This document shows positions 1,915 through 53,973 of a DNA stretch of 64,000 nt, piece after piece (the stretch's first letter is position 1; each line of letters opens with the position of its first letter). The notes under the pieces are model-generated. The model saw only the letters and a program-made list of their open reading frames with translations, had not been told where the DNA came from and did no database searches. The position numbers were made by a program, and so were the translations under genes. This stretch comes from an uncultured Rhizobium sp. (GTDB taxonomy: Bacteria; Bacteroidota; Bacteroidia; NS11-12g; UBA955). The stretch lies in contig CAZGQS010000005.1 of the NCBI GenBank assembly GCA_964527775.1, positions 2,745 to 66,744 of the forward strand, read 5' to 3'.

Positions 1915-2049
1915 AATTGTTGTTAACTTTAGTTGTACTAATTCTAATTTTTTGATTAAGATAAATACTTGTAAAAACTGAATAACAAGATAGCTGTATT
2001 ATTTATTTTAATTTTTGGGATACCTCTTTTTATAAGTGGCTTCAACTTT

Positions 2050-3039: not shown

Positions 3040-4075
3040 AATTCCAACGGAGATTATAACATCATTTGATGTGGATTATACATTAGTTTATCCTGCAAAT
3101 CTCTATCAATATTTTCGTAGTTTCCGTCATTTTTCGAAGCTTAGAATTAACAACGTTTTTAATTTTGAATATTTACTTAAAAAAGCTGAAGAACAATATG
3201 TTTCATTTAGAAAGTTCTTTTTTATTGCCCATAAATGGAATCGAACTAAGGAATTAAATCAATTAAATCGTTGTTACAATTGGGGTTTGGAGATGCGAGA
3301 ATCTGGCATTTTGGTGATTGCATGGAATAAAAATGATCCTCAGACAATGGCCATGGCTGAAAGTGGCGCAGAGATTGTTTACTTGGAGAATGGTTTTTTT
3401 AGAGGCACACATTTATTCTGTTCAAAGCCGGAATTATTCCCCGTGATCAAGATTAATTCTAAGTATAGTTTTTTATTTCAAACTACTTTGAACTTTTTTG
3501 ATTGTGTTTTTGATTTTTTTGAAGCAAATAGAACTTTATTTTATTACAGTCAAACTATATATAACAAAATCAATAAATTGAAGTATTTGGTAAGGAGTAT
3601 TGGTAAAAGAAGTAAAACAGGAAATATATCTCAATCATATCTTTTGTTTATTGGGCAATTAGACTTTGATGCAAATACAATCATCCAAGGTAATAATCAC
3701 AATTCCAAATCTGTAATAGAGTATTTAAGTAATGCAAAAAGTGATTTTTTTTACCGCCCTCATCCTAATACCTTTACAAGTAAAAGTGAAAAAAGATATA
3801 TTCGAAAATTTCAGGATATAACCTTGGAACAGGAGATACTAAACTCCGAAATCATTATTACCATTAATTCTAGTGCGGCAGTTTCAGCCTTATTAAAGAA
3901 TAAATTGACACTTTTTTTAGGCGAAGGTGATCTGCCTGCCATTTTTCCAGAGTATTCTGTAAGTATAGGCGAGATTTTAACTAATAATCTACCGCAAAAG
4001 TTATGCGCCGTGGAAGTTAGATGCCGGTTGGAGTTATTTCGTCAAAATTCCCATTTAATAATTCAAAAGTCTTAG
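3017..4075 (+). CDS. Capsule polysaccharide biosynthesis protein (KpsS/Capsule_synth-like), tentative
   Basis: The motifs VYLENGFFR and LFIGQLDFDANTI...FFYRPHPN resemble the E-x-G-F-x-R and LQVxxDSQI...HP signatures I recall for the KpsS/KpsC-type family. It overlaps the previous gene by 23 nt. Confidence 0.4.
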   Translation: MKKIGFFKIPTEIITSFDVDYTLVYPANLYQYFRSFRHFSKLRINNVFNFEYLLKKAEEQYVSFRKFFFIAHKWNRTKELNQLNRCYNWGLEMRESGILVIAWNKNDPQTMAMAESGAEIVYLENGFFRGTHLFCSKPELFPVIKINSKYSFLFQTTLNFFDCVFDFFEANRTLFYYSQTIYNKINKLKYLVRSIGKRSKTGNISQSYLLFIGQLDFDANTIIQGNNHNSKSVIEYLSNAKSDFFYRPHPNTFTSKSEKRYIRKFQDITLEQEILNSEIIITINSSAAVSALLKNKLTLFLGEGDLPAIFPEYSVSIGEILTNNLPQKLCAVEVRCRLELFRQNSHLIIQKS

Positions 4076-4076
4076 A

Positions 4077-5141
4077 ATGCTTAGATTTACATCGCAAGTC
4101 TTTAATTCAGGATTTAATTTGATTTTTGGATTGCTAATAATGTATCTTCCTTCTTTAGAGTATTTTTTTGTCTTTTTTTTAACAATCAGTTCTTTATCAA
4201 CTAGTTTGTTTTTAATGCATTGGGAACGGTCTAAGCAAAAATTCTTGGTGCCTTCGCTTAGAACAGGATTGTTGGCTTTGTCTTTTTTAGTGATATGTGT
4301 TTATTGGCTTGTGCCTGTGAATCTTGGGTTTAATGCCCAGTTAATTCTGAGTGCGGTACTAGTGTCGTTATTGTTGTCTTATTATACTTTGCTTAGCTCA
4401 TATTTTGCCTTATTGAATAACCGTCTGAATGTGTTCTTAAGTTTTTTTATCAGAATAATTATTGGTGTTGTTTTCGTATTGTTTCATTTAAATATGATTT
4501 CAATTATCTTTTATTGTGTAACATATTTTATTATAATATTATTTTCATTTTATTGGACAAGGGGATTTTATTTAGCCAATACTCAAGATGATATAGATTT
4601 GATTTATTTACATTCTGTTGAATATCCAAAAAATCAACTTTGGTTATATTTGTCGCCTAGGTTATTGGATTTTAATATTTTAGGGCAGGTTTATGTTTCC
4701 CGACAAGTTTTGAGTTTACTGGCTTTTTTGTTTGCTTTTAGAAGAACTATTTGGTTTGATGATTTATATAGAAGAGATGAAGTTTTTGAGATCAACAAAC
4801 TAAAGAAATTGCTTTTGCCTTATCTCGGGTCGTTTATTTTGGTATTTTTATTCTCCTCTGTATTTCTTAAAACTGAATTATTTATAATTACATTAAGTTG
4901 GTTTTTTCTGATAATAGTTCAAGATTTGAAGGGCTATACAAATAGGGTGATTAACTTTAATTGGTTTCAACGGTCCTGGATAGTTCTACTTATTTTGTCT
5001 TTATCAGTTATTACTGTTGTATCAGTAAATGTGGGCTTTTTTACAAAAACGTATCATGTTTTGCAGATGATGATCTTGATTGACTTGGTTCTGCTTTTTT
5101 TATCTGCATGGATATTTAAGAATGAAAAAGTTTATTTATAA
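4077..5141 (+). CDS. Polytopic inner-membrane protein (possible Wzx-like flippase or ligase-like protein)
   Basis: About 10 predicted TM segments and no recognisable catalytic motif. The only other evidence is its position inside the polysaccharide operon, 1 nt after the preceding stop. Confidence 0.45.
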   Translation: MLRFTSQVFNSGFNLIFGLLIMYLPSLEYFFVFFLTISSLSTSLFLMHWERSKQKFLVPSLRTGLLALSFLVICVYWLVPVNLGFNAQLILSAVLVSLLLSYYTLLSSYFALLNNRLNVFLSFFIRIIIGVVFVLFHLNMISIIFYCVTYFIIILFSFYWTRGFYLANTQDDIDLIYLHSVEYPKNQLWLYLSPRLLDFNILGQVYVSRQVLSLLAFLFAFRRTIWFDDLYRRDEVFEINKLKKLLLPYLGSFILVFLFSSVFLKTELFIITLSWFFLIIVQDLKGYTNRVINFNWFQRSWIVLLILSLSVITVVSVNVGFFTKTYHVLQMMILIDLVLLFLSAWIFKNEKVYL

Positions 5142-6219
5142 TTTTAACATTGGAATTCGATTTAATCCAAAAGCATCTAAAAAAATAGTTTTTTTATCAT
5201 ATTTAGGTCCTACTTCATTAATTTTAGATGATCTGAATTTAAAAAAACATCCAAATGTTGAGCAACTTCGTTGTTTTATAAAAATTCTTTCATCGCATTA
5301 TCGTTTTGTGATATTTGTCGATTATCGTAATTCTTTTTTAAAAATAAAATCTGATTTTTTGATTGGTTTTGGTTTAGCATATAGAAATAATTTTTATTAT
5401 TCAAAACACAGGTTCTATTTTGCCACGGGTTCTAGTTCTGAATTTGTTTCAAAAGAAATCTTACGGGCAAAATCTCATTTGGATTTTGTGAATCCAAGTG
5501 AAGTACTTTGGCGAAATTCTGATCCTGCTGATGTTTGGGACGAAATTAATTCTGAGAGAATCTTATTGATTGGAAATAATTTTACAAAAAGTACTTTTCA
5601 GTTATGTAAAAAGCAGAATATTAGTTTGTTGCCTGGTAATTTTCTAAATGGAGATCTAAAACATCCTGTATCTCCTCAATCTATAAAATTAGATACTCTT
5701 TTGTGGTTTGGGAGTAATGGTTTGCTTCATAAGGGGTTGGATATTGCTGCTAATGTGGCCAGTATTTTGAATTGCAAGCTGATTGTAGTTGGAGTTTCAC
5801 CCCGTGAAGTTCAGCTTGCAAATGATATTTGTAAAAATTACTCTTTAGAGTTTGAATTACATGGTTTCCTAAGTTTAAAATCTTCGACATGGTATGATGT
5901 TCTAAATAGAGCGACCTTTGCTTTGTTTCCCTCCATTTCTGAAGGTATGAGTACGGGTGTTTTAACGTCAATTTTTTTTGGTTTATATCCAATCGTTACA
6001 GATCGATGTGGATGTGATGTTGGACACTTAGTTGAATTTAAAGAACGGTCTAAATTAGTGAATCAGTTTGTGGATGAATTAGCGAGTCTTAGGATTATGG
6101 ATGAATTATTCATTCATCAAAAAATAATATTATGGCAGAATCAAATTCAAAAGAATAATAGTTTAAATGCATTTTTTGAAATTTTAAAAGAAGCTTTAGA
6201 AGGTGAAGATATTAATTGA
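5122..6219 (+). CDS. Glycosyltransferase, GT-B fold (GT4/GT1-like)
   Basis: The C-terminal motif LFPSISEGMSTGVLTSIFFGLYPIV matches the E-x7-E region of GT4 enzymes. I place the start at ATG 5122 (MKKFIYNF) rather than at the track start 5080. Confidence 0.7.
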   Translation: MKKFIYNFNIGIRFNPKASKKIVFLSYLGPTSLILDDLNLKKHPNVEQLRCFIKILSSHYRFVIFVDYRNSFLKIKSDFLIGFGLAYRNNFYYSKHRFYFATGSSSEFVSKEILRAKSHLDFVNPSEVLWRNSDPADVWDEINSERILLIGNNFTKSTFQLCKKQNISLLPGNFLNGDLKHPVSPQSIKLDTLLWFGSNGLLHKGLDIAANVASILNCKLIVVGVSPREVQLANDICKNYSLEFELHGFLSLKSSTWYDVLNRATFALFPSISEGMSTGVLTSIFFGLYPIVTDRCGCDVGHLVEFKERSKLVNQFVDELASLRIMDELFIHQKIILWQNQIQKNNSLNAFFEILKEALEGEDIN

Positions 6220-10632: not shown

Positions 10633-11013
10633 TTATAAGATGGTTAACCCATAACTTTTGAATGACTTGTCTCGAGTTATTAATTTGAAATCATGATTTA
10701 AACACTGACTTATTATTATTCTATCAAATAGATCGGTATGGTGGTAAGGGAGATTTTGAAGCTTCAGGAAGTCTGAATTTTGAATAGGTAAAATTGCCCA
10801 GCCGCTTCGTTCGACGTAGAAGAATAAATCTGAAAGAGGTATGGGTAATGTTAATTTACCAATACTGATTTTGATGGTTAATTCCCAAATAGATGCTTGG
10901 CTGATAAAAATGTGATTTTGCGTGTCTTCGATGGTAGTTCTAATCTCATTGGTGATTTTGGGGTTCCCCTCAAGTATCCAAATTAATATATGAGTATCTA
11001 ATATTAGATTCAT
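10633..11013 (-). CDS. vapC: Type II toxin VapC (PIN-domain ribonuclease)
   Basis: The N-terminal LILDTHILIWIL motif is followed by later acidic PIN residues. It is 126 aa long and has a 4-nt ATGA overlap with the upstream gene. Confidence 0.9.
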   Translation of the reverse strand: MNLILDTHILIWILEGNPKITNEIRTTIEDTQNHIFISQASIWELTIKISIGKLTLPIPLSDLFFYVERSGWAILPIQNSDFLKLQNLPYHHTDLFDRIIISQCLNHDFKLITRDKSFKSYGLTIL

Positions 11014-11381
11014 GGGGTGTATTCTTTGAATTCATCTAAAGGAGCATCAAAATCTTCAGACATGAATATTTGCCCTTTTAATAATCCCCACAAACTTGGT
11101 CTTGTCTGACTAGAATTTTTATGAATCAGAAACTGAGTGAATTCAAGTACTTGAATTTGTTTTTGCAGAGGTAATTTTTCGAGTCCAGTGGTGACTTCTG
11201 TTGCAATACTGCTGACAGAGTTATAACTAGGTAAGGGCTCCGAAGCAATTTTTGTTTTATTGTAATTAATGAGTAAATCCTCAATTTTCTCGCTGAGACT
11301 TTTGCCTTCCTTTTTTGACCAGAATTTTGACTTTTGGTGTACGATTTCGTCAAGGGTAATGTTGATACGTTTTTTATTCAT
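11010..11381 (-). CDS. Antitoxin partner of VapC (RHH-like N-terminus plus DUF2281-like C-terminal tail)
   Basis: It is translationally coupled to vapC. The N-terminal INITLDEIVHQK region is ribbon-helix-helix-like. The C-terminal MSEDFDAPLDEFKEY matches the DUF2281-type tail as I recall it. Confidence 0.7.
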   Translation of the reverse strand: MNKKRINITLDEIVHQKSKFWSKKEGKSLSEKIEDLLINYNKTKIASEPLPSYNSVSSIATEVTTGLEKLPLQKQIQVLEFTQFLIHKNSSQTRPSLWGLLKGQIFMSEDFDAPLDEFKEYTP

Positions 11382-11423: not shown

Positions 11424-13001
11424 CTATTGCTTTTGCGTTTTTTGCAAAACTAGGTAGTCGATTTTGCTGAAATGACGGGGGTCACGGGGTATTTTGAGCA
11501 ATTTAACATCGCCGTCAGGCAGTCTCAAGGAACGCAAATCTTCTTCTACAGGAGAGAAGCAACCGAGTTTTGGGTATGCCAAATGCTTGAATGAATCGCA
11601 GCGATTTAACTCTAAAAAGTAAACTAATTTGTTATTGATTTTCAATACAGTGCCCATAATTACTCCTGGAATATGTCGCAATTGATATTCCATCAAGAAG
11701 GGATATAAAGATTGACCTTGCCAATCAATGATTTGTTGACAACGACCCAGAAGTCGGAGGTTTCCATTGGCGTCAATGTAACCCGAGTCGCCGGTTCGGT
11801 GGAATAGTTTTTGGTCAATTAGGATTTTGGAACTTGCCATTTGTTCTGCTGCTTGGGGACCAAAATATTCTTTAACTACATGGTTTCCGGCAACGGCAAT
11901 TTCGCCAATCTGACCCGTTTCAAGTACCTTTTGTGATTGGATATCTAAAATTTTAACGACAGTACAAGATTCTATTTTTCCTACACAAAGTCCATCTTCA
12001 AAAGTGGAATCGGCGGTCTGAATGAGCGTGCGTGCATTAATGCTGGAAATAGGTTCTGCCTCGGTACTACCGTAAACAATTTCAACCCTGGAATTTGGAA
12101 ATGCGGTGAGCCATAATTTGGCCTCAGAAGGAAACACGGGCGCCCCACCGCTGAAGACTTCACGCACCGAACCTAGATTGGGTGAAATGTTTTGAGATAG
12201 GCTCTTAATGCACAGTTGATCAATGAAATAGGGTGATGCGATGATGCGATTGACGCGAAACTTCTCTATGGTCTTAATGATCTTTTGAGCCTTTAATTTA
12301 TAGGGCTTTTTGCTGCTCCAATTCACAATGACGCTGCTCACTCCTAGGCCCAAATTAATCATTAAAACAATGGGCAAAACAGGCATATCTACCGTGTCAT
12401 CACGGGTTTGTAAGGTATTTTGGAGTGCTAAAAATTGTTGATGTAGAATTTCGTGGCTGCGTTTGACCGCTTTGGGAATACCCGTGCTGCCGGTGGTGAA
12501 CGTGATTAGTGCGGTGTCATTTGAGGCATCAATAGAAACCGCATCGTGGTAGAGGCTTTTCTTGGCGTTCTTTATTTCTCGCGTGGTAATGCGGATGGGT
12601 ATTTGTCTGATATCCCTGATTAAATGTCCCAAGAAAGAAGCCAACGAAATACCAATAAATCCTTTGCAGTCAGCTATTTGGCAGGAAGTTTTTAAGCGGT
12701 TAAGTTTGGCCCATTCATCGATAAAAACGGCCGTGCAACCCATTTGAAACAAGGCCAATACGCTGACATATAAATCAATGCTCATGGGAACGAAGACCAA
12801 AACGCGGTCACCTGACTTTAGGCCTCGTTCTACAAATAATGAATGCGCGGCATCAATTTTATGTCGAAGTTCACCGAAGGTAATCTTTGAATGTTCATCG
12901 GCGATGGCCAGGCGATTGGAATTCATGATCGCGGCAGCATGGAAATGTTCCATGATATTGCCTTTAGTTAAAGTCTGTGCGATATGAATGATGTTAGACA
13001 T
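11424..13001 (-). CDS. AMP-dependent synthetase/ligase (ANL superfamily)
   Basis: Core motifs are ITFTTGSTGIPKAV, YGSTEAEP and HRTGDSGYIDANGNLRLLGR. The start lies 2 nt after the stop of the upstream gene. Confidence 0.9.
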   Translation of the reverse strand: MSNIIHIAQTLTKGNIMEHFHAAAIMNSNRLAIADEHSKITFGELRHKIDAAHSLFVERGLKSGDRVLVFVPMSIDLYVSVLALFQMGCTAVFIDEWAKLNRLKTSCQIADCKGFIGISLASFLGHLIRDIRQIPIRITTREIKNAKKSLYHDAVSIDASNDTALITFTTGSTGIPKAVKRSHEILHQQFLALQNTLQTRDDTVDMPVLPIVLMINLGLGVSSVIVNWSSKKPYKLKAQKIIKTIEKFRVNRIIASPYFIDQLCIKSLSQNISPNLGSVREVFSGGAPVFPSEAKLWLTAFPNSRVEIVYGSTEAEPISSINARTLIQTADSTFEDGLCVGKIESCTVVKILDIQSQKVLETGQIGEIAVAGNHVVKEYFGPQAAEQMASSKILIDQKLFHRTGDSGYIDANGNLRLLGRCQQIIDWQGQSLYPFLMEYQLRHIPGVIMGTVLKINNKLVYFLELNRCDSFKHLAYPKLGCFSPVEEDLRSLRLPDGDVKLLKIPRDPRHFSKIDYLVLQKTQKQ

Positions 13002-13003
13002 TG

Positions 13004-15220
13004 TTATAGATCTATTCCATACAGTTGGTATTCAGAAATGATTTCGGCTTCCAAAGATTCAGAGCACCTCAATGATGCTGCGTCTATATGCATGAATGAA
13101 TGGACTACTTGAAAAATGCCCAGTTTTTTGGCTTTTTGTTGCAAAATATCTGTCATCACCAATCCCAATCCACCAAGTCTAAAATCGGGTTTTCGAGCTA
13201 CTGTTTTCATGATGATGGAATTATTTTCAATGTCTAAGTAGGCAAAGACAAATCCCTGCAAATTCCGTTCCAATTCTGCTAGAAGTACCCATTCGGGATC
13301 AATTAAATGTTTGATTTCGTTGTATTTCAGTAAAAAGTCTTTCCAATGTATGGGTGTATAGTAGGGATTGTGTTGGAAGGCCACGAGGCTGAGCTCGTGG
13401 ATTTTGTGAAGTTCTTCTTCCCAATGATTCGGGTTTAAATGCCTGAATCTGATGCCTTGGATTTCCAATTGACTTTTTCGGTCATCCAATCTGGAAATGC
13501 TACCAGGAATTTCGTGCATGAGGGTACTTACATATCGTTCAATGGGTTTGAATCCCGCATTTTCAAAGAACTCAATCTGTTCAGGTTGGTAGGGGATATC
13601 CCCCAAAAAATTGCGATGAGAAGTGGTTTTTAAACGATAATCGTTCCAAGTACTTCCTCCGTTCATGGGGCCAATGATGCGTTTGTAGCCGTTTTGTTGG
13701 GACCAAATTATCAGTTTTCGGAGGTCGGTGATCGGTGATCGGAGGTCGGTGATCGGTGATCGGAGGTCGGAGGTCGGTGATCGGAGGTCGGAGGTCGGTG
13801 ATCGGAGGTCGGTGGTCAGTACACGGCTATCAGAGTTCGGCTGACGGCTTTCGGCTGGTGGCTGTAGGTTGAAAGCTGAGGGCTGATTGCAGTTGACTGA
13901 TAGGGCTAATGTTTCTAAATTTAGGGGCCAGATATGGATGGTGATCGGTGATCGGAGATCGGTGGTCGGTGATTGGTGATCGGTGATCGGTGATCGGTGA
14001 TCGGTGGACAGTACACGGCTATCAGTGTTCGGCTGACGGCTGTCGGCTGATGGCTGATGGTTGCCCGCTGAAAGCTGATCGCTTTCGGCTGATGGCTGAA
14101 GGCTGAAAGCTGACGACTGATCGTTATAATCAATGACAATGGTATTGTAGAAGTAACCGTCGTCTTGAGCGCGGAGTTCCGACATGAGGTCTGATTGTTC
14201 TGTTAGTGTGGGAACTACCTGTGAACATCTTCGGGTGACCATCAAATTCCAGTAAGCCAAACGTCCCCCGGGAAAAAGACCGGAAGATAGTTTGGTGGCG
14301 GCCTCGCTGAATTCAGATTCATTCATATATTCGAAGATGTTGCTCAGGTTCATGGCGTGGAAATGTCCGTAATGAGAAATAGCGTCCTCGGCGAAACCGT
14401 GAAATAATGAAATTCTATGGATTCTGGCTTTGATGAATTCGTAGTTATTTGGTTGAAGGTAGTGGGGCAAAAGTTCGCCGAAACTGCCCGTTAGATTGTA
14501 GCGAAGAAAGGGGTTCTGCTGCGCGCTGACAGAACTTAAGTGAGTTTCAGCTTGATTCAATATGAAATCTGAAACGGGTATCTTCACTTGTTTTAAGAAT
14601 TCGGGGTCGCGGCCCAATCTTCCCATGACGGTGCGACTGAAAAACAATTTGAACAATCCGCGCCAACGCCAAGTGTTCCATTTGTTTAGAAAGAATTGGC
14701 GCTGTTCATGGGCCGATTTGGGAGCGAATAATTCAGCGATTCTATTTTTGTTGTGAATCAGCGGGAGGACTTTTTGGGAAAAAATTTGGAAGTACTTTTC
14801 GAATTTTCCATGATGAATGATGCCTGTTGAATTCCATTTAGACAGCGTTTTTGAGAAGTAATTGGCTGCATCTTTAGAAAGATGGGGAACTAATATGTTG
14901 AATAGATCCGCACGATTTGAGGCGGGTGAATATCCCAAGAAAGCAAGAACCTCGGAGTAAGTAAGGTGCTCAATGGCCCTAATTTTCAGCTCGGTTAAAT
15001 AGAGTTGAACAGGGTTGATGTCGGCGGCAACAATCAGTTTTGGGTCGGCCATCAACAGACTGAAACAGTTGTCACCTGCGGAGGCAATGCTTAACACCTG
15101 ATCGTGTTTCTGAATGTTGAGCGCTTTGAGCAAGACTTTGGGGTCTTCCCAAACCGTGGCATAACGAATGAAGTCAAACGATGCTGATTGTGAAATGCTC
15201 AATCTTCTAGTTCCCTCCAT
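13004..15220 (-). CDS. BtaA-like (DUF3419, SAM-dependent 3-amino-3-carboxypropyl transferase-like) N-domain joined to a GNAT-like C-domain through heptamer-repeat-encoded linkers
   Basis: The N-terminal ~365 aa carry FIRYATVWEDPKV and SIASAGDNCFS (BtaA-like). Residues ~366-500 are 7-aa repeats (DLRSPIT, DHRSPIT, SRQPSA). The C-terminal part has IIGPMNGGSTWNDYRL and an acyltransferase-like fold pattern. Confidence 0.7.
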   Translation of the reverse strand: MEGTRRLSISQSASFDFIRYATVWEDPKVLLKALNIQKHDQVLSIASAGDNCFSLLMADPKLIVAADINPVQLYLTELKIRAIEHLTYSEVLAFLGYSPASNRADLFNILVPHLSKDAANYFSKTLSKWNSTGIIHHGKFEKYFQIFSQKVLPLIHNKNRIAELFAPKSAHEQRQFFLNKWNTWRWRGLFKLFFSRTVMGRLGRDPEFLKQVKIPVSDFILNQAETHLSSVSAQQNPFLRYNLTGSFGELLPHYLQPNNYEFIKARIHRISLFHGFAEDAISHYGHFHAMNLSNIFEYMNESEFSEAATKLSSGLFPGGRLAYWNLMVTRRCSQVVPTLTEQSDLMSELRAQDDGYFYNTIVIDYNDQSSAFSLQPSAESDQLSAGNHQPSADSRQPNTDSRVLSTDHRSPITDHQSPTTDLRSPITIHIWPLNLETLALSVNCNQPSAFNLQPPAESRQPNSDSRVLTTDLRSPTSDLRSPTSDLRSPITDLRSPITDLRKLIIWSQQNGYKRIIGPMNGGSTWNDYRLKTTSHRNFLGDIPYQPEQIEFFENAGFKPIERYVSTLMHEIPGSISRLDDRKSQLEIQGIRFRHLNPNHWEEELHKIHELSLVAFQHNPYYTPIHWKDFLLKYNEIKHLIDPEWVLLAELERNLQGFVFAYLDIENNSIIMKTVARKPDFRLGGLGLVMTDILQQKAKKLGIFQVVHSFMHIDAASLRCSESLEAEIISEYQLYGIDL
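13719..13887. repeat. Heptanucleotide-phased tandem repeat block A1 (GGTGATC/GGAGGTC units, then GGCTGAC-type units)
   Basis: The period-7 repeats can be read directly. The block shares a near-identical ~47-nt core (13811-13857) with block A2 (14003-14049). Confidence 0.9.
13939..14122. repeat. Heptanucleotide-phased tandem repeat block A2 (GGTGATC x ~9, then GGCTGAT/GGCTGAA/AGCTGAx units)
   Basis: The period-7 repeats can be read directly. It is separated from A1 by ~50 nt of unique sequence that encodes IHIWPLNLETLALSVN on the minus strand. Confidence 0.9.
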
Positions 15221-17730
15221 GAATTCTCTAACACAATTTTGATTTTACCGGTGGCACCGTCCATTTCAACGATGTCGCCAGTTTCAAGTTGATTCAATAA
15301 ATTGGTGATACCCACAATGCAAGGTTTTCCTAATTCTCGTGAAACAATGGCGCTGTGAGATAGGAGGGAGCCTCTTTCTACCAAGATTCCAGATGCCGTT
15401 GGAAACAACATCACCCAACCTGGGTCGGTGGATGAGGTTACTAAAATGTCTCCATTTAAATCGCTCACTTCTCGAGGATCTATTACAATTCTCACCTTTG
15501 CTTTGACGATGCCAGGACAACACCCAATGCCTTTGAGATCAGCACCTTCCAACGAACTTTTGGTTTCTTGAATGAAAGAGTTTGCATGGTAGACGTTCCC
15601 ATAAGTTCTGATTCTTTCGGAGGTGTTTTGGGACTCGTAACCTTGGTATTTCACCTTTCTGAATTCTATGAGATCGGCAATTTCTGGCGTAACCGATGTT
15701 CCCTTGATGAAGTCAAAAATTTCTTCTTGGGTTAGGTAAAAAATGTCACGCGGGTGTTTGATGATGCCTTCGCCGTAAAATTGATTTCCGATGGCCAAAA
15801 ACAGTTCTCTTATTTTTCCAAATCCGCGGGTTCGTTCAAACCTGAGGTTTTCGCGCGCGCTCACCATTTCACGGGTTTTGCCCAAAACATAGTTGAAAAT
15901 CCGTCTTTTAATGGGTTTATCCCTGAAGGTTTCTTTAATAATGTCTTCGCCTTGTTTTCTGAGGTCTTTATGCGAAGGTTGGCCGTAAGATGGGTCGTTG
16001 GTTGAACTGTAATTCGCTTGATATCTCACGTGTGACTGAATCAAAGCTGCGAACATTGCAGGATCTTGTCTGTAGGTTATGGTTTCAAGTTTGAGTTCTC
16101 CCACGGTGCGGTCGCCAAATTTATCAATGTAGTATTTGAATTCTTTTAAAACGTTTTCAAAGTTTCTGTCTGTTTCAAAGGCTTTTAAAATCTCCTCGGG
16201 AGTGGCCTTAACTATAAATTCAATCCAATTCCAGTGCTTGCTAAGTTTGTCAACAATTTTTTCAATTTGATGGATGGGCTCTACTGAAATGATATCTCCA
16301 GCACTACTCAATAATTGATTGTGAATGCCGTCGGGGAGTTGATATTTTTCGGCCAACTTTTGAGTAAACCCAAAGTAAATCATGGCATAAAAATCATTCA
16401 CCAATGGAGCTTTCCATTTTTTCAAAAGGGTTTGTTCGAACCTTAAAATCAATTCCATCAACTCATGTGAATCTTTTTCGTGGAGCGGAATTTGGTTGAA
16501 TTCATCCATGACTTTTTGGAAGTCGGCTTGAAAAGTCACCCTCATTTTAGGAAGTGCCCTCAAGTTGCTGATCATCGATTTAATCATGATCAACACACGC
16601 GTTCTTTCGGTCCATTTGCTTCTTTTGGGAAGGTCTTTCAGCTCAAATCGCTCTTTCACGCCCATCATTTTCTCCATGAATTCGGCGTTGAGATGATATC
16701 CGGGCAATAAGGCTAGAGCTTTGTACCACGATAGAAGATTGTAATAAACTCGGCCGTTGATAAGACCCAGCATATTGGCAAAAATTCCCGCATTTTTGGT
16801 TAAATCTGCTTCGCTCACACCCAACAATCTGCAAAGTTGGATGTACACTGATTCATACATCTTAATGATAAAACTAAAGGTAAGGGGAGTGGTGACTCCC
16901 GGATACGATTCGATGATGTTGGAATTGTCCCACAGTATCATCTCCGATGATTGATCAGACGTCAGATTCAGCGTGGTTACGGGTCTGCTTTGAAGTAAGT
17001 AAAATTGCTCATCCTCCCAGCAAAATTCGATGTCTTGCGGTTTTTTGTAAAGAGCCTTCAGGTCGCTTAGAACCTTGCAAATATGTTTAAGCTGATTGGG
17101 TGTGAGTTTTGTTTCGGGGGATGCTTGGAAGTCAGAATCTATCAAATTTCTGGTTGTTGAATCCAAAATGTAGGTATCAGAATTCAACTCTCCGCTAACC
17201 AGTCCCTCACCCAAACCGCACACAGCCGATATCACGATTTCTTTGCGTTTGCCGTTGACGGGATTCATTCCAAAGGCAACACCTGAAACCGCAGGGTTGA
17301 GCATGCGCTGAATCACAATTCCCATTTTTTGTGGGGGTTCAATACCGTGTTCGTGGCAATAAGCAACCACTTCAGGTCGTTTGAGCGAGTTCCATACATT
17401 GGTGATGGCCTGATTCACTTGGTCCCATTCAACATTTAGTTGAGTCAGAAATTGACCGGCAAAACTCTGACTTCCGCTGTCTTCGCCCAACGCCGATGAT
17501 CTTACCGAAACGAATTTGGGACTGCCCAAATAGTCTTTGATTTCTTGAAGTTCAACCTCAGACAGTGGTTTTGAAATATCAATCTGTTGAGCATTGTACA
17601 CAACAAATTCAGGAACTTTGAATCCATAGTCTGAAAGATGCAACAGGTTGAATCCCTTCCCCCCACTGAATATGGGATTGGATTTTACATCGAATGGACT
17701 TTTATATAAAATGAACTTTACGAAATCCAT
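15199..17730 (-). CDS. PEP-utilizing-family dikinase-like enzyme (ATP-grasp N-domain, large central domain, C-terminal swivel phosphohistidine domain; no PEP/pyruvate TIM-barrel domain)
   Basis: The N-terminal GGKGFNLLHL...VPEFVV is a PPDK_N-type ATP-grasp motif. The C-terminal TSSTDPGWVMLFPTASGILVERGSLLSHSAIVSRELGKPCIVG is the mobile His domain. I chose the start at ATG 17730 (MDFVKF); the track start is 17781. Confidence 0.85.
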   Translation of the reverse strand: MDFVKFILYKSPFDVKSNPIFSGGKGFNLLHLSDYGFKVPEFVVYNAQQIDISKPLSEVELQEIKDYLGSPKFVSVRSSALGEDSGSQSFAGQFLTQLNVEWDQVNQAITNVWNSLKRPEVVAYCHEHGIEPPQKMGIVIQRMLNPAVSGVAFGMNPVNGKRKEIVISAVCGLGEGLVSGELNSDTYILDSTTRNLIDSDFQASPETKLTPNQLKHICKVLSDLKALYKKPQDIEFCWEDEQFYLLQSRPVTTLNLTSDQSSEMILWDNSNIIESYPGVTTPLTFSFIIKMYESVYIQLCRLLGVSEADLTKNAGIFANMLGLINGRVYYNLLSWYKALALLPGYHLNAEFMEKMMGVKERFELKDLPKRSKWTERTRVLIMIKSMISNLRALPKMRVTFQADFQKVMDEFNQIPLHEKDSHELMELILRFEQTLLKKWKAPLVNDFYAMIYFGFTQKLAEKYQLPDGIHNQLLSSAGDIISVEPIHQIEKIVDKLSKHWNWIEFIVKATPEEILKAFETDRNFENVLKEFKYYIDKFGDRTVGELKLETITYRQDPAMFAALIQSHVRYQANYSSTNDPSYGQPSHKDLRKQGEDIIKETFRDKPIKRRIFNYVLGKTREMVSARENLRFERTRGFGKIRELFLAIGNQFYGEGIIKHPRDIFYLTQEEIFDFIKGTSVTPEIADLIEFRKVKYQGYESQNTSERIRTYGNVYHANSFIQETKSSLEGADLKGIGCCPGIVKAKVRIVIDPREVSDLNGDILVTSSTDPGWVMLFPTASGILVERGSLLSHSAIVSRELGKPCIVGITNLLNQLETGDIVEMDGATGKIKIVLENSWRELED

Positions 17731-18644
17731 TGCCAGGCGGTGAGTATTCCTCCGAGGGTTAGGTACATGAGAATGGTCCATAGTCCGCTGGCAATTTCAA
17801 CGCCTTTGGCGGTTTTAGAACTCTTGTATTTAAAATGTAGCGCTGCTGATATTAGGGTCAAGACAAAATAGATAAGCAATGCGGCAAACACACTACTGGG
17901 TAATTTTGCATAATCTGCTGCGAGGATGGCCAGTATCAATGTCCCCAGAAGAACAAACATCCAAAGCCAAAGGGCTTTGCTGAGACCCAACATGGCTGAG
18001 TAAGTTTGAACACCGGGTTTTTCATCGTGGGGAGCACGGATTTTACGTCCCAATTCCAACACAATGCCGTTCATGAAAGACACCCCGAAGAAGTATAACA
18101 GTCCGAAAGGAGCTGGATTATCAGATAGTTTCCAATCATATCCTGATGCATAAACATCAATCAAAGGAATGATGAGCATGTGGGATGTGACGTACCAAAA
18201 CTGGTGGTTTTTGAGCCAATCTTTGATAAAGAATTCTTTGCCCATGAGCAGTAAATAACCAATTGCAAGGGCATAGAGGGGAAGCATATTAGGAAATGTC
18301 AACGCGCTGATGATGATTTGAGCGGCAAAGACAAACCAAGCAATGTTTCGGAGTTCTTTTAGAGAAATGAGTCCTCGAGGAACGGGCAGTTCTGAGCGGT
18401 AGAGGGCATCGTCTTCGGCGTCTTTGTGTTCATCAAAAACACGAAGCAAAAAGAAGAGGGTTACCGTGTTGAAAATGCAGACCAAAAACTTTTCCCAGCC
18501 AATGAATCCGGGGAGTTGTTGCGACAATCTAGAATAGCCTATGGCGCTGAAACTGAAGGCAGAGATGAGGATTCCGTGGGAGTGTAGAGGGAATCTTTCA
18601 TTGAGGTATTGCCAAAATCTTTGGTAGAGTGGGGTTTGGGACAT
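17718..18644 (-). CDS. UbiA-superfamily prenyltransferase (integral membrane)
   Basis: About 8-9 TM segments. The first Asp-rich motif is LLRVFDEHKDAEDD. A second motif-like region is APHDEKPGVQTYS. Confidence 0.85.
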   Translation of the reverse strand: MSQTPLYQRFWQYLNERFPLHSHGILISAFSFSAIGYSRLSQQLPGFIGWEKFLVCIFNTVTLFFLLRVFDEHKDAEDDALYRSELPVPRGLISLKELRNIAWFVFAAQIIISALTFPNMLPLYALAIGYLLLMGKEFFIKDWLKNHQFWYVTSHMLIIPLIDVYASGYDWKLSDNPAPFGLLYFFGVSFMNGIVLELGRKIRAPHDEKPGVQTYSAMLGLSKALWLWMFVLLGTLILAILAADYAKLPSSVFAALLIYFVLTLISAALHFKYKSSKTAKGVEIASGLWTILMYLTLGGILTAWQWIS

Positions 18645-18762
18645 GGGATAGGTTCTGAAAGGTTCGAATGTACGCGGATTTTGAAGAGGTTCAAAAAGGA
18701 AAAATGCAAAAAGTGAAGTTGTAAATTACGGATTATCCTTAAAAATTAAAGATTTAGGTGGA

Positions 18763-18770
18763 TATATTTG
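18763..18770 (+). promoter_or_regulatory. Candidate Bacteroidota -7 promoter box (TATATTTG)
   Basis: It matches the TAnnTTTG consensus and lies 10 nt upstream of ATG 18781. Confidence 0.35.
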
Positions 18771-18780
18771 CCTTCCATTG

Positions 18781-21060
18781 ATGAAAGTTAGTGAATTGAA
18801 TGTGCCATTTGTTCCCGGTAGAGGTTTTAATACCTCTTCGGCGGTTCAAATGCGTTTGGATTATCTTAGAAAAAGAGAGATTTCTCTTCCGTCTCTAGAA
18901 ACACATCAGTTGCCCTTAGACGAAGTAAGAAATAATATAGAATCATTTATAGGAAGCGTAGAGATTCCTGTGGGCTTAGTTGGCCCACTGTTATACCATG
19001 GTGAAGATGGTCAGGATGAATGGGTTCATGCTCCCGCCGCCACCTTGGAAGGTGCTTTGGTTTACAGCATGAACAGAGGTGCAAAGTTGATCTCAAAAAG
19101 CGGCGGTTTTACCGCTCATTTTCATTATCAGAAAATGCTGCGGGCGCCCATGTTTATATTGGGAAACCCAGATGTAGTCCAGAAGTTATCTGAATTTATT
19201 TCATCGAATTTTGATGCCATTAAAGAGGTTGCCGAGTCTTATTCCAATCACGGAAAGCTTATTGAAGTTCAGTGCGAACCCATTGATAATCATTTAAATG
19301 CTTATTTTTATTATGTGACAGGAGATGCCGCAGGACAGAATTTAACCACTACTTGTACATGGCACGCGCTTCAATTTATTGCTGAAAATTTTGACGGGGA
19401 GATTTTAGATTATGTCATAGAGGGCAATGGCGCATCCGATAAAAAAATATCCCTCAGAAACATAGAAAAGGGAAGAGGCAGTAAAGTGTCAGCTGAAGTT
19501 GTAGTTGATGATGCGATGATAGAAGAAGTTTTGAGAACTACTTCTGATCAAATCATGAGGTATTTTGAGCCGTCTAAGCGCATTGCATTGCAACACGGTA
19601 TGGTTGGATATAGCATCAATGCGGCCAATGCCATTGCCGCTATTTTTGCTGCTACGGGACAAGACCTCGCGTGCATTCATGAGTCGGCGACGGCATTTTT
19701 AGACATCGAAAGGCTTGAAAATGGGCTTAAATTCTCTTTGCTTTTGCCTAATTTGGTCATTGGAACTGTGGGTGGCGGCACTCATTTGGCTAAGCAATCG
19801 GATGCTTTGAATTTGATGGGTTGCAAGGGCTCAGGTAAGGTCAAGCGCTTCGCTGAACTCATTGCTGGGTTCACTCTAGCCCTTGAAATATCTACTTTTG
19901 GAGCCATAGTGAGCGGCGAGTTTGCTAAGTCACACGAGAAGTTGGGAAGAAATAAGCCTCAAAGTTGGTTGCTAAAATCTGAAGTTAATCTTGATTTCGT
20001 AAAGTCAATTTTGGTTGCTAAAGATGCTCCTTCGGTTGAATTTCTTGAATGGCAAAGTCATTTGTACTTTGACAATGGCATCATCACCCAACTTTCTCAA
20101 AAAGTGAGTAAAAAGCTTCAAGGTTATTACTTGTTGAAGGTCAAAGAGTCTAGTAACGGATTGGTGCTTTTGAAGTCGCGTCCCACCAGCGACGAAGTCA
20201 TCAAAGGGCTGCACTTGATTGCGGTTTCGGTTGACGGTCAACTCGCTGATTTATTGTTGTTTTGTCGAGAGTATTTGGAGTTTCACCAATGCCATTTGAA
20301 GGAATTGGCAATCAATAGGTTTTTGTTTTCCGGGGGATATGCTTACGCTCCCAAATATTATGGTGATAAAATTGACAGTCAGCGCGAGATTTTTTTGCTC
20401 GCTCAAGAATATATTTACCCTCAGAATACCCGTTTACTGAACTCGGAAGATCAGCCCAATTTATGGCAATCAGTTGATGTCATAAAATGCATCGACGCCA
20501 TAAACGAGTTTCACATCAAAACGTTTGGGTTAGATGGTATTGAAGATGTTCAGATTCCATTGCAACAACCCTGGCTCGCAAGCTCTTTCTACCAGCGTTT
20601 ACAAGAGATCTTGGTTCAAACTTGGGATGGTGACCATTTGGAAGTCTTGAAAAGTCTCAACATTGCTTCGTTGGATGAAGAATTTTCAACCCTAAAAATG
20701 CCTACCTGTTTTATTCACAACGACTTTAATCCACGAAACATCATGATTCTTAAAAATGGTAATCCCGTAATTTACGATTGGGAATTAACCGTGAGAGACA
20801 TACCGCAGCGTGATATTATGGAGTTGTTGTGTTTTGTTTTAAAAGATGATGAATCACCCGAACCATATATGCGTTATCACTGTAAACTAATAAACGCAGA
20901 TTGGGCAGAATATCAACGCGCTGCAAAATATGCCTTAAAGAGTTTGATTCTAACTAGATTTGCGTTGTACGAAGTATCGGGAATTGTAGCGAAGTATGAG
21001 TTCTCGAAGCGCGTGATGGGGAAGGCGTTGAATTTGACGGCTTCGCCGGAGACTTTTTGA
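18781..21060 (+). CDS. HMG-CoA-reductase-like (class I type) catalytic domain fused to an APH/choline-kinase-like phosphotransferase domain
   Basis: HMGR-like motifs are ESFIGSVEIPVGLVGPL, TLEGALVYS, GDAAGQN, ASDKK, ATGQDLA, GTVGGGT and KSHEKLGRN. Kinase motifs are FIHNDFNPRNIMI and IYDWELT. The track start is 18778 (TTG), followed immediately by ATG. Confidence 0.8.
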   Translation: MKVSELNVPFVPGRGFNTSSAVQMRLDYLRKREISLPSLETHQLPLDEVRNNIESFIGSVEIPVGLVGPLLYHGEDGQDEWVHAPAATLEGALVYSMNRGAKLISKSGGFTAHFHYQKMLRAPMFILGNPDVVQKLSEFISSNFDAIKEVAESYSNHGKLIEVQCEPIDNHLNAYFYYVTGDAAGQNLTTTCTWHALQFIAENFDGEILDYVIEGNGASDKKISLRNIEKGRGSKVSAEVVVDDAMIEEVLRTTSDQIMRYFEPSKRIALQHGMVGYSINAANAIAAIFAATGQDLACIHESATAFLDIERLENGLKFSLLLPNLVIGTVGGGTHLAKQSDALNLMGCKGSGKVKRFAELIAGFTLALEISTFGAIVSGEFAKSHEKLGRNKPQSWLLKSEVNLDFVKSILVAKDAPSVEFLEWQSHLYFDNGIITQLSQKVSKKLQGYYLLKVKESSNGLVLLKSRPTSDEVIKGLHLIAVSVDGQLADLLLFCREYLEFHQCHLKELAINRFLFSGGYAYAPKYYGDKIDSQREIFLLAQEYIYPQNTRLLNSEDQPNLWQSVDVIKCIDAINEFHIKTFGLDGIEDVQIPLQQPWLASSFYQRLQEILVQTWDGDHLEVLKSLNIASLDEEFSTLKMPTCFIHNDFNPRNIMILKNGNPVIYDWELTVRDIPQRDIMELLCFVLKDDESPEPYMRYHCKLINADWAEYQRAAKYALKSLILTRFALYEVSGIVAKYEFSKRVMGKALNLTASPETF

Positions 21061-21087: not shown

Positions 21088-21166
21088 GCGGCTCAGCCGC
21101 TGCTGATGGCTGATAGCCGGATCTTGGCTGACGGCTGACGGCTGATCACCGATCACCGATCACCGC
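21088..21166. repeat. Heptanucleotide repeat block B (GGCTGAT/GGCTGAC units, then inverted GATCACC units)
   Basis: It reads ...GCTGATGGCTGATAGCC...GGCTGACGGCTGACGGCTGATCACCGATCACCGATCACCG. It fills the convergent gap between the stops at 21060 and 21167. Confidence 0.85.
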
Positions 21167-21934
21167 TCACGGTAACTTAGCAATCATCCTATTATACCGT
21201 TCCTGGTATTTGTTGCCGGTTTTTCCGCCGAGCTTTTTGTGAAGTTCGTGGATGTGTTGAACGCGTTTGCCTGGGTCTGGGTGAGTGCTTAAGAATGCGG
21301 GGATGTTTTGTCCGCCGGAGGCGGACATCCGCTCAAAGAATCCGGCTGCACCAGTGGCTTGATAGGATGTGTTGTAGAGCCATTTAACTGAATATTCATC
21401 TGATTCGAGTTCGTCTTTACGTCCGTATTTCAGAAATGCGAGACCGGCTGCAATGTTTGTTAGATCATGATATTGAGTATCTATGAATAGGTGGGTAATG
21501 AGGGTGATTCCGTATTGACGGGTTAAGGCATCGGTGCTGTGTCTTTTTGCAGCGTGGGCGATTTCATGTCCCATAACACCAGCAAGCTCGTCTTCGGATT
21601 GAAGGTATTTAAGTATGCCTGTGTAGAAATAAATGTAACCACCGGGAGTACAAAAGGCGTTGAGGGTGGGGTCATTGATGATCCTAATACGCCATGGAAA
21701 GCGAGCTTCGTGATCAATTTCGTTGTTCTTGAAGATGCTGTCCCTGATGGAATACAAATAGCGGTATATGACGCCATTTGTGGTACTATCGAGAATGTTA
21801 TTTTTATTGTCTTTGTCAATTTGGGCAGCGGCTTGCGCACCAAAGTTGAGGTCAGATGAAACGGGAAAAACGTTTAGGCTCTTAGAAAATGTGGAGCAAC
21901 CCACGAGAATGAAGGCGGCTAATAATGGACGCAT
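21167..21934 (-). CDS. M48-family zinc metallopeptidase, lipoprotein
   Basis: HExxH occurs in GVMGHEIAHAAKRH, with a downstream ELESDEYS. The signal peptide has a lipobox (ILVGCS). Confidence 0.9.
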   Translation of the reverse strand: MRPLLAAFILVGCSTFSKSLNVFPVSSDLNFGAQAAAQIDKDNKNNILDSTTNGVIYRYLYSIRDSIFKNNEIDHEARFPWRIRIINDPTLNAFCTPGGYIYFYTGILKYLQSEDELAGVMGHEIAHAAKRHSTDALTRQYGITLITHLFIDTQYHDLTNIAAGLAFLKYGRKDELESDEYSVKWLYNTSYQATGAAGFFERMSASGGQNIPAFLSTHPDPGKRVQHIHELHKKLGGKTGNKYQERYNRMIAKLP

Positions 21935-23777: not shown

Positions 23778-23801
23778 GCTGCGAAGATAGTTAATTCAGT
23801 T

Positions 23802-23910
23802 GACAGCGGTCAGCGGTCAGCTATCAGCTATCAGCTATCGGTGATCGGTGATCGGTGATCGGTGATCGGCTGTCGGCAGAAAACTGAGAATTGATCACCG
23901 ATTACCGATT
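23802..23910. repeat. Heptanucleotide repeat block C: (CAGCGGT)2 (CAGCTAT)3 (CGGTGAT)4, plus an inverted GATCACCGATTACCGAT arm
   Basis: The repeats can be read directly. The inverted arm can pair with the CGGTGAT run to form a long hairpin immediately downstream of the peroxiredoxin stop. Confidence 0.9.
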
Positions 23911-24614: not shown

Positions 24615-24712
24615 GGCTTTCAGCGGCCAGCGGTCAGTTGAAGGTCTAGAGATTAGAGTTGAGCCCGCTACCCTCTAAACGCTACACCCTGAACTCAAAA
24701 GCGGTCAGCCGA
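24615..24712. repeat. Degenerate heptamer-phased block D (CAGCGGC, CAGCGGT; xxTAGxG units on the minus strand)
   Basis: GGCTTTCAGCGGCCAGCGGTCAG sits at the left end and AGCGGTCAGCC at the right end. The interior is phased with period 7 when read on the minus strand. Confidence 0.55.
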
Positions 24713-28648: not shown

Positions 28649-30010
28649 ATGCAAAAAAGTGCTTTGGTATTACGGATTTTCACTTTGGTTTTTTCTTTTG
28701 TTTCTGGGGGACATTTATTCGGTCAAGGAATCATGGGAGAGGGTAGCTCTTCATCGGTTCTCAGTCAACCCAATCGGCCATTGCCACCGCTTGATAAAAC
28801 AAATCTGGGTGAAATCTCCTATTACGACATCACTCAAGAATTGCTTGACTCTCTCCGTAGCAGATACAGACTTCAAAAAACACCTTATTACAAGGTGAAA
28901 ATGTCAATTGGGAATTTTTCAGAATCAGGGGTATTAAGACAGCAGGTTTATTTGGGATTTGGTTCAGCGAAAGCAAATGACAAGGTCTTTCGTATGAAAC
29001 GGAATTTAGTCAAAGGGAAGCTCATTGCAGTAGATTCACATGGAGTCTACCTCTATCAGAAGTCAGCAAAAAAAATGGGATTTGTACCATATACTGATAT
29101 TTGGTATATCAGAAGAGGAAATACAAGTTCAGATAAAATAATTCGAGATGCAAGCGCAATCATTGGTACTACAACTCTTATTGGAATGGGAGCTGGAATT
29201 GCAGAAGGGGAGTTAGATTATGTACCACTCGGGGCTATAATTGGTGGGTTCGTAGGTGCTTTCCTTTCACCGTTTGTCATAGTTCCAGATTTGATTTATC
29301 ATGAACTTCAAAATACTTCAAAGCGCATAAAATTCCGTATAAATTACCGCAGTGATAAGATGACTGATTACATTGCGATGGTAGAAAAAGACCGTTACCG
29401 CTATGGTAAGCGCATTATGTATCATGAGTTTCCGGGTTCTAACAATTCCACTATTGATCAGGATCAACCAGTAATCAGCGATCAGCCTTCTTCCACGAGC
29501 CACGAGCCAATTGCTAAAGACCAAGAGCCAGTAATCAGCGTTCAGCCTTCAGCTAACAGCCAACAGCCAATTGCTAAAGACCAAGATCCAATATCCAAAG
29601 ACCAACAACCAATATCCAAAGACCAAAATCCAATAGTTTTACCACCCTTCAAATCGGGTAAATACATTTCTGCTGCTTGGATGATTCAAGGGTTTGAATC
29701 GAAGTTTGTAAATGTGCAACGTATGCTCAAGACGTTTCCAGATTTGAGGAACAGTCAATTGACAGATGCCGATAAAGCACTTTTTAAGAATTCTGATGAA
29801 GTAAAATATGCAGCAATGCTTATTTGTACCCCTTTGGGATTTGATTTCAGTAAAGCGGTAGCATTGAATGAAAGCCAAGCAAATGACCTCACACAATTGT
29901 TGCCTTATTACAACGTTCAAGTTGTTAATGGTCAAACGGTAATTAAGTCAAGTGGATTGACTAGAATTGACGAAGTGAATTTGGAATTCCTTTACAAGTT
30001 GATGAAATAA
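28649..30010 (+). CDS. Membrane protein of unknown function with a heptamer-repeat-encoded low-complexity linker
   Basis: It has a signal peptide and glycine-zipper TM segments (GTTTLIGMGAGIA, GAIIGGFVGAFLSPFVIV). A PISKDQx repeat linker is followed by a ~120-aa C-terminal globular region. Confidence 0.55.
   Translation: MQKSALVLRIFTLVFSFVSGGHLFGQGIMGEGSSSSVLSQPNRPLPPLDKTNLGEISYYDITQELLDSLRSRYRLQKTPYYKVKMSIGNFSESGVLRQQVYLGFGSAKANDKVFRMKRNLVKGKLIAVDSHGVYLYQKSAKKMGFVPYTDIWYIRRGNTSSDKIIRDASAIIGTTTLIGMGAGIAEGELDYVPLGAIIGGFVGAFLSPFVIVPDLIYHELQNTSKRIKFRINYRSDKMTDYIAMVEKDRYRYGKRIMYHEFPGSNNSTIDQDQPVISDQPSSTSHEPIAKDQEPVISVQPSANSQQPIAKDQDPISKDQQPISKDQNPIVLPPFKSGKYISAAWMIQGFESKFVNVQRMLKTFPDLRNSQLTDADKALFKNSDEVKYAAMLICTPLGFDFSKAVALNESQANDLTQLLPYYNVQVVNGQTVIKSSGLTRIDEVNLEFLYKLMK
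29455..29640. repeat. Heptanucleotide-phased block E inside a CDS (CAGCGAT, CAGCCTT, GAGCCAC..., then CCAATAT/CCAAAGA/CCAACAA units)
   Basis: The period-7 phasing can be read directly over ~185 nt. It is translated in frame as 7-residue repeats (PISKDQQ, PIAKDQE). Confidence 0.7.
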
Positions 30011-53592: not shown

Positions 53593-53594
53593 TC

Positions 53595-53969: not shown

Positions 53970-53973
53970 AGTA

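Follow-up and report, generated by a model that had tools for sequence, protein, structure and literature searches.

Tandem heptanucleotide repeats run through the middle of a gene in a 64,000-nucleotide (nt) stretch of contig CAZGQS010000005.1 (assembly GCA_964527775.1) from an uncultured member of the Bacteroidota, which is referred to here as the window. The open reading frame (ORF; 13004..15220, minus strand, 738 codons) joins a BtaA-like (DUF3419) domain to a tandem-GNAT domain and carries two repeat blocks, one at the junction of the domains (block A) and one inside the second domain (block B). To judge from its sequence, the ORF is a single genuine gene and encodes a bifunctional enzyme, with a predicted BtaA-like S-adenosylmethionine (SAM)-dependent transferase followed by a predicted tandem-GNAT acyltransferase. 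The two blocks are very probably hypervariable linkers derived from simple repeats and tolerated in an enzyme that had been fused before they arose. This reading is carried by the anatomy of the gene, by repeat-free relatives with the same fusion, and by alleles that differ in repeat number and all keep the reading frame.

Anatomy of the gene and its repeat blocks

The ORF has no internal stop codon across its 738 amino acids (aa), as had been claimed in a preliminary description of the window. At one end it shares 22 nt with the PPDK-like gene upstream, and at the other 2 nt separate it from the acyl-AMP ligase gene downstream. Its parts, with the evidence for each in brackets, are listed below (pLDDT, predicted local distance difference test).

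14129..15220, minus strand: DUF3419/BtaA-like domain, aa 1-364 (match to PF11899, alignment, and a stand-alone gene in locus L019)
13940..14128, minus strand: block A at the inter-domain junction, exactly 27 heptamers, 189 nt, 63 aa (heptamer register; pLDDT below 50)
13895..13939, minus strand: unique core IHIWPLNLETLALSV, 45 nt, 15 aa (alignment to the repeat-free homologue P0004; strands in the model)
13718..13894, minus strand: block B, 25 heptamers plus 2 nt, 177 nt, 59 aa (heptamer register; alignment; pLDDT below 50)
13007..13717, minus strand: remainder of the tandem-GNAT domain, aa 502-738 (pLDDT above 90; Foldseek matches; homologue clusters)

Tandem Repeats Finder reported 7-nt arrays at 13718-13817, 13940-14006 and 14030-14123. 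There are two unit types, CAGCNNN and GATCACC. Block A runs from CAGC-type units through the junction GAACACT GATAGCC GTGTACT to GATCACC-type units, and block B has the same unit order and junction, its CAGC-type units being read as xxCAGCC. The junction of both blocks can be written GAAC(A/T)CT GATAGCC GTGTACT, after which GATCACC/GACCTCC units follow. In block B the units extend from 13894 to 13720 and continue into GAAAA and a conserved helix, KLIIWSQQNGYKR. The block borders first proposed (14122-13939 and 13887-13719) were a few bases away from the 14128-13940 and 13894-13720 found here, and the translations proposed with them (DHRSPIT, DLRSPIT/DLRSPTS and SRQPSA-type repeats around the unique peptide IHIWPLNLETLALSV(N)) agree with the sequence.

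The assignment of the N-terminal part to a BtaA-like family was borne out by the Pfam profile DUF3419 (PF11899), which scored 229.5 bits against a cut-off of 28.2 and covered most of the model (aa 14-334 to model positions 5-339 of 385). The domain thus shares a strong DUF3419 profile match with BtaA, the SAM:diacylglycerol 3-amino-3-carboxypropyl transferase, and here forms the N-terminal domain of a larger protein. In alignments its conserved region ends with ...GYFYNTIVID at aa 364 (nt 14129), and stand-alone DUF3419 proteins end 2-3 residues past the equivalent point.

The C-terminal domain gave no sequence match in Pfam, NCBIfam or the PDB, and no sequence profile in these collections placed it in a curated GNAT family. 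An AlphaFold2 model of aa 365-738, built with 85 homologues, reached a pLDDT above 90 over the last 245 residues (aa 130-374 of the modelled segment) and stayed below 50 in both repeat blocks, which are predicted to be disordered, and the core peptide was modelled as a beta-hairpin (strands E63-70 and E73-79) with a pLDDT of ~72. In Foldseek searches against the PDB, the C-terminal model matched 3tt2, 7wx5, 7q3a, 1ozp, 5kga and 2wpw (E values of 1e-10 to 1e-8, probability 1.0, template modelling (TM) scores of 0.4-0.5). These matches include VipF (7wx5), MAB_4324 (7q3a), MshD (1ozp) and a glucosamine N-acetyltransferase; FemX and the C-domains of MprF scored more weakly than the tandem-GNAT proteins. 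Model and matches agree on a duplicated GNAT alpha/beta fold. Furthermore, the C-lobe contains an R-x-x-G-x-G motif, RLGGLG, within ...ARKPDFRLGGLGLVMT..., which conforms to the acyl-CoA pyrophosphate-binding pattern Q/R-x-x-G-x-G/A, and its GLG is conserved in the consensus of 86 homologues. The family is large, with 968 homologue clusters at E<1e-10, and stand-alone proteins of ~330 aa make up most of the best 150 of these.

At the level of fold, the model identifies the C-terminal domain as a tandem-GNAT acyltransferase. It resembles MshD, VipF and MAB_4324 in fold and in the C-lobe R-x-x-G-x-G motif and differs from such enzymes in that searches by sequence match it to no Pfam family and no PDB entry. 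The unique peptide IHIWPLNLETLALSV is predicted to be the first beta-hairpin of the N-lobe, and block B would therefore sit inside that lobe. The peptide aligns to FDFGIYRLNSETLAIGY of the repeat-free P0004, and the site of block B corresponds to an N-lobe loop where the clade had already lost a strand. The N-lobe is inactive-looking, and the loop that holds block B appears to have been eroded already. A GNAT-like domain had been proposed before; this stands at fold level (Foldseek ~1e-10), although the domain begins at the unique peptide and not, as first placed, after block B.

Copy number, reading frame and order of events

Eight alleles were available from independent assemblies, namely metagenome-assembled genomes (MAGs) at NCBI and sequences from Logan, ENA and JGI. 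A metagenome scan for further alleles yielded one close relative, L086. The unit counts are as follows.

Window: block A 27 units, block B 25 units
L001: block A 12 units, block B 16 units
L003 (= P0001): block A 15 units, block B 16 units
P0250: block A 18 units, block B 16 units
P0251: block A 15 units, block B 16 units
P0252: block A 15 units, block B 13 units
L093: block A 24 units, block B 13 units
L086: block A 15 units, block B 17 units, then 4 nt

A run of 5 nt comes after block B in all alleles bar L086, which has one unit more and one base fewer and whose frame is compensated as a result. Every allele keeps the frame at both blocks (8/8 alleles, 16 blocks), and apart from this compensated exception the lengths change by multiples of three units (21 nt, 7 aa). 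Copy number is thus polymorphic, as in other long simple sequence repeats (LSSRs), with 12-27 units in block A and 13-25 in block B; variation of this kind had been named in the preliminary description as something to look for. One cluster at an identity of at least 90% contains proteins of 689, 696, 689 and 682 aa, which differ by indels of exactly 7 aa located in one or other of the blocks. Identity inside the blocks is 53-79%, compared with 96-98% in the rest of the protein.

The internal structure of the blocks tells a similar story. The 3' part of block B has a higher-order period of 21 nt, at which 96% of positions match, against 81% at period 7, and the longest perfect tracts measure 60 nt at period 21 and 32 nt (4.6 units) at period 7. 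Since the 21-nt period and its tracts exceed those of 7 nt, the recent surviving events are taken to be three-unit steps. The repeat units are otherwise degenerate (arrays 70-90% matching), and the blocks have acquired stop codons in the other frames at the CTGATAGCC junction. A simulated change of +/-21 nt keeps the frame. Because each block keeps the frame independently, the core hairpin between them is always correctly translated.

The fusion of the two domains predates the repeats, since the homologues P0004-P0014 carry the identical DUF3419 + tandem-GNAT fusion without heptamers (47-76% identity, 636-716 aa). In P0004 the junction linker has 5 residues (VCLRS) and the N-lobe loop ~13 (PSKEGSNLNLT...). 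In Sphingobacterium, Dyadobacter and Fluviicola, the two parts are separate genes in the order PPDK-like, DUF3419 (361-378 aa), a 223-aa membrane protein, GNAT (324-340 aa) and acyl-AMP ligase, and match lengths point to this separate-gene order for the majority of the 80 loci fetched. The gene for the 223-aa protein, a multi-pass membrane protein without a Pfam match, lies between the DUF3419 and GNAT genes at ~7080-7751 in L019, 7095-7766 in L031 and 7155-7826 in L050. In the fused lineages it is absent from that position. Heptamer repeats are confined to the window's own clade and occupy the same two sites throughout. The order of events is accordingly separate genes, then fusion with loss of the intervening gene, then loss of an N-lobe strand (in the clade that includes P0004 and the window) and finally the arrays, in the window clade only.

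This order settles the choice between two histories offered in the preliminary description. A welding of two genes by repeat insertion is refuted by the repeat-free fusions, while the acquisition of expandable linkers by a pre-existing fusion agrees with repeats that occur only in the window clade, at two constant sites and in numbers that differ between alleles. The comparison of orthologues that had been recommended for the purpose returned both of the expected arrangements, fused without repeats in P0004-P0014 and separate in most of the Bacteroidota examined.

The proposed course of events begins with two genes of the kind still separate in most Bacteroidota, which would have fused before any repeat was present. 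Heptamers of the CAGCNNN and GATCACC families, dispersed in the genome, would then have occupied two permissive sites, the inter-domain junction and the eroded N-lobe loop. We infer that lineage-specific slippage or recombination of heptamers seeds and resizes arrays wherever they are tolerated. Those that survive in coding DNA would be the ones in permissive linkers or loops, in the stop-free orientation, and with unit counts that keep the frame, either by three-unit steps or by compensation; purifying selection for the full-length bifunctional enzyme would remove the other variants. The outcome would be a transferase tethered to an acyltransferase by disordered, hypervariable segments rich in Ser, Pro, Thr, Asp and Arg, acting as passive flexible linkers whose presence is close to neutral.

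Dispersed heptamers and competing explanations

The blocks belong to a repeat family that is dispersed over the window. The pattern GATCACCGATCACC (GATCACC type, at most 2 mismatches) has 26 matches in the window against 0.28 expected, and CAGCN3CAGCN3CAGC (at most 1 mismatch) has 29 against 0.06; no shuffled sequence equalled either number. Arrays beyond chance, as in heptanucleotide LSSRs, lie at several sites (13.7-14.1, 21.1, 23.8, 24.6 and 29.5 kb). Those outside the fused gene are listed here.

21100..21171, no strand: intergenic array of both heptamer families between convergent genes (repeat and pattern scans)
23797..23906, no strand: intergenic array of both families, CAGCGGT/CAGCTAT units and then ATCGGTG units (repeat and pattern scans)
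24621-24638: small intergenic CAGC-type run (pattern scans)
29468..29635, plus strand: degenerate CAGC-type array in frame within ORF 28649..30010, a hypervariable linker of 7-aa repeats (PISKDQQ)

The window, L001 and L003 have arrays of different length at the orthologous site beside the HMG-CoA reductase gene. Intergenic arrays of these families were seen at L003 1-145 and L001 3484-3573, between or downstream of genes. Among 93 fetched loci (of the order of 1 Mb of Bacteroidota DNA), both patterns were limited to the window clade. In the sister clade, no heptamer array was found in the 35 kb around the orthologue of the fused gene; elsewhere its representative L094 has other heptamers, with GATCCCC, TGTCGGG and TTGGTAG in intergenic DNA and CTACCAA and ACCCCCG inside the orthologue of ORF 28649..30010. 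With other families present in the sister clade, heptamer arrays characterise the wider lineage, in which the unit sequence turns over fast.

The protein encoded by ORF 28649..30010 (plus strand, 453 aa; 422-465 aa among its relatives) has a signal-like N-terminal segment and no Pfam match. A hypervariable linker with a period of 7 aa separates its conserved halves; the linker reads PISKDQQ in the window clade and DPLPTTN in the sister clade, where the repeats (L094 3038-3221) consist of CTACCAA/ACCCCCG heptamers.

Because 7 and 3 have no common factor, reading a heptamer array in triplets passes through every phase of the unit; on a given strand, either no frame contains stops or each of them does. 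The coding strand of the linker is open in all three frames and the opposite strand has 7-18 stops per frame. The CAGC units are stop-free in both ORFs that contain them, and both families together are stop-free only in the orientation seen in ORF 13004..15220. In the intergenic arrays (21100..21171 and 23797-23906) the two families run in opposite directions, and both strands contain stops for that reason. The idea that the blocks are copies of one composite mobile element was set aside, given that the intergenic arrays pair the two families in other relative orientations. A search with the repeat peptide (TDHRSPIT)n in 5.8 billion proteins returned only 'hypothetical proteins' of 46-76 aa, mostly from Burkholderia pseudomallei, and was uninformative on coding use. 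These DHRSPIT-like proteins (P0205-P0247; Burkholderia pseudomallei and a few other bacteria) are probably, on sequence grounds, miscalled genes over intergenic GATCACC-type arrays.

Several observations weigh against the view that the blocks are tolerated, passive linkers. Their neutrality is an inference, and the persistence of both sites in every member of the clade could mean that they have acquired a role. Minority out-of-frame variants may exist within populations, hidden in consensus assemblies, and the assemblies built from short reads may miscount tandem units. In addition, the junction variant tends to agree between blocks A and B of the same allele (GATAGCC GTGTACT in the window and L086, GAAAACC GATCACT in L093, P0251 and P0252), which hints at conversion between the blocks or at a shared or more structured origin than slippage. 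The regions compared were 13840-13894 and 14009-14049 of the window and their equivalents in L001, L003, L086 and L093.

If the persistence of the blocks reflects a function, they would be tunable linkers, disordered 7-aa repeats co-opted for domain spacing, membrane proximity or regulation, with a length polymorphism that selection maintains. The retention of both blocks in all alleles of the clade, the separate keeping of the frame by each block with the core hairpin always read correctly, and the similar hypervariable 7-aa linker of a second window protein in two clades all fit this view. However, repeat-free orthologues with 76% identity manage with linkers of 5 and ~13 residues, the peptide is simply dictated by the heptamers and poorly conserved (53-79% identity), and identical units also occupy intergenic DNA; selection on the linkers themselves is consequently judged unlikely. 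A still slighter chance is given to a history in which the long ORF is an accident of stop-free repeats, either welded from two genes by the repeats, read as two genes with an internal start, or created by misassembly. The ancestral state was indeed two separate genes, and arrays that are open in three coding-strand frames could bridge two ORFs. Against this, repeat-free relatives are already fused, the inter-block peptide is conserved as part of the second domain and always in frame, and the conserved helix after block B is preceded by no start codon. An assembly artefact is opposed by the recovery of the two-block structure in 8 allelic forms from NCBI, Logan, ENA and JGI. We regard this history as barely credible.

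The preliminary description had also raised a contingency (phase-variable) switch, in which changes in copy number other than by multiples of three units would shift the frame and uncouple the domains. With slips of one or two heptamers, subpopulations would make the BtaA domain alone, and a GNAT-dependent lipid modification would be turned on and off. The premise holds in part. The unit is a non-triplet repeat within an ORF, single-unit slips shift the frame, unit counts do differ between alleles, and simulated changes of +/-7 or +/-14 nt ended translation at aa 430-465 when made in block A and at aa 500-548 when made in block B, leaving the BtaA domain intact. The alleles do not behave accordingly. 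None of the eight (16 blocks) is out of frame, and neither the 55 matches in 5.8 billion proteins nor the membership lists of the clusters contained a truncated allele of high identity. Lengths change in steps of 21 nt, the most recent duplications are of 21 nt, perfect heptamer tracts extend to no more than 4.6 units (32 nt), and the units are degenerate (70-90% matches), with off-frame stops built up inside the blocks. Of three hallmarks of contingency loci that were tested, two are therefore lacking, ON/OFF alleles and long perfect tracts. The hosts are presumably free-living freshwater or groundwater bacteria and the product presumably a cytoplasmic enzyme, not a surface antigen, which we also count against a switch. 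Taken together, a switch seems very unlikely, and the small probability left to it reflects the fact that consensus assemblies would hide rare OFF variants.

Established contingency loci include tetranucleotide tracts in Haemophilus influenzae (PMC2651432) and heptanucleotide tracts at the hmw1A promoter (PMC8262952). The present gene resembles them in having a non-triplet repeat in an ORF, at which a single-unit change would truncate the product. It differs in the absence of OFF alleles (0/8), in its short and imperfect tracts, in the mid-gene position between domains of a metabolic enzyme, and in its apparently free-living host. Were the switch real, subpopulations of free-living freshwater Bacteroidota would carry an unmodified (free-amine) or an N-acylated lipid head group, and membrane-lipid chemistry would be under the control of a contingency locus in bacteria that are not host-adapted pathogens.

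Gene neighbourhood, predicted chemistry and significance

The fused gene lies in an operon-like cluster (11424-21060) that is conserved in the window, L001, L003 and L004, with the gene for HMG-CoA reductase-APH adjoining on the opposite strand. The neighbours are as follows.

18778..21060, plus strand: HMG-CoA reductase fused to an APH-type kinase
17718..18644, minus strand: UbiA prenyltransferase
15199..17781, minus strand: PPDK/Rph-like enzyme
11424..13001, minus strand: fatty-acyl-AMP-ligase-like enzyme

Elsewhere, DUF3419 occurs in fusions with PPDK-like, HMG-CoA reductase, CDP-alcohol phosphatidyltransferase or MFS domains (P0037, P0051, P0022, P0043, P0019). This neighbourhood and these fusions would link the enzyme to lipid or isoprenoid metabolism. 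As a suggestion for its chemistry, the BtaA domain might transfer an aminocarboxypropyl group to a lipid, and the GNAT domain might then N-acylate the amino group so introduced. The context of the gene in the window (UbiA, HMG-CoA reductase-APH, PPDK/Rph-like enzyme and acyl-AMP ligase) is, we assume, unlike the btaA-btaB pair, and the acceptor of the predicted BtaA-like transferase may for this reason be other than diacylglycerol. Literature searches found nothing on this gene cluster.

Immediately beyond the downstream end of the cluster (10633-11381, minus strand), genes for a PIN-domain toxin and a DUF2281-type antitoxin were noted, their names being taken from the L001 orthologues; in L001, further toxin-antitoxin-like genes follow. 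Two stretches of the window, 2001-6000 and 52001-54000, have a low G+C content (0.29-0.31, compared with ~0.40-0.44 elsewhere) and may represent horizontally acquired DNA or loci for surface polysaccharides. Scanning the window for Rfam families and tRNA genes gave nothing relevant.

Heptanucleotides are described as the commonest LSSRs in many bacteria and as mostly non-coding, while simple repeats within genes usually have a unit length divisible by three (Mrazek et al., 2007, as summarised in PMC4679880; PMC4692102). Known heptamers include TAACTGA in Beggiatoaceae, cyanobacteria and Bacteroidetes (PMC4679880) and the GGGAATC/GGGGAYT repeats of Xanthomonas and Nostoc (PMC4692102), and published families of this kind are reported to be under-represented in coding sequence (PMC4692102). 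The arrays of the window share with these repeats the tandem 7-nt unit, the many sites, the lineage-specific distribution, the variable copy number and the mostly intergenic location. They differ in their unit families (CAGCNNN and GATCACC) and in that some of them are coding, forming long in-frame tracts (189 and 177 nt) inside genes and changing by three-unit steps. Literature searches found no precedent for in-frame heptamer arrays in Bacteroidota. With in-frame coding tandem repeats, the blocks have in common a hypervariable linker, here predicted to be disordered, a length polymorphism without loss of the protein and an effective period of 21 nt (7 aa), whereas their basic unit has 7 nt, which is not a multiple of 3, and takes up each of the three codon phases in turn. 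Selection for an intact frame seems to be the source of the 21-nt period.

The case falls between in-frame coding tandem repeats and frameshifting contingency repeats; the degree of surprise is modest and no new mechanism is required. For annotation it serves as a warning that 7-aa low-complexity inserts in this lineage are derived from repeats and do not mark domain boundaries. It also clarifies the history of the gene, in which a BtaA-like transferase was joined long ago to a member of a large uncharacterised family of tandem-GNAT proteins. As very probably explained here, the gene provides a natural example of a non-triplet simple repeat that has become coding through its stop-free orientation and steps of 21 nt, and that has thereby given rise to a disordered hypervariable linker.

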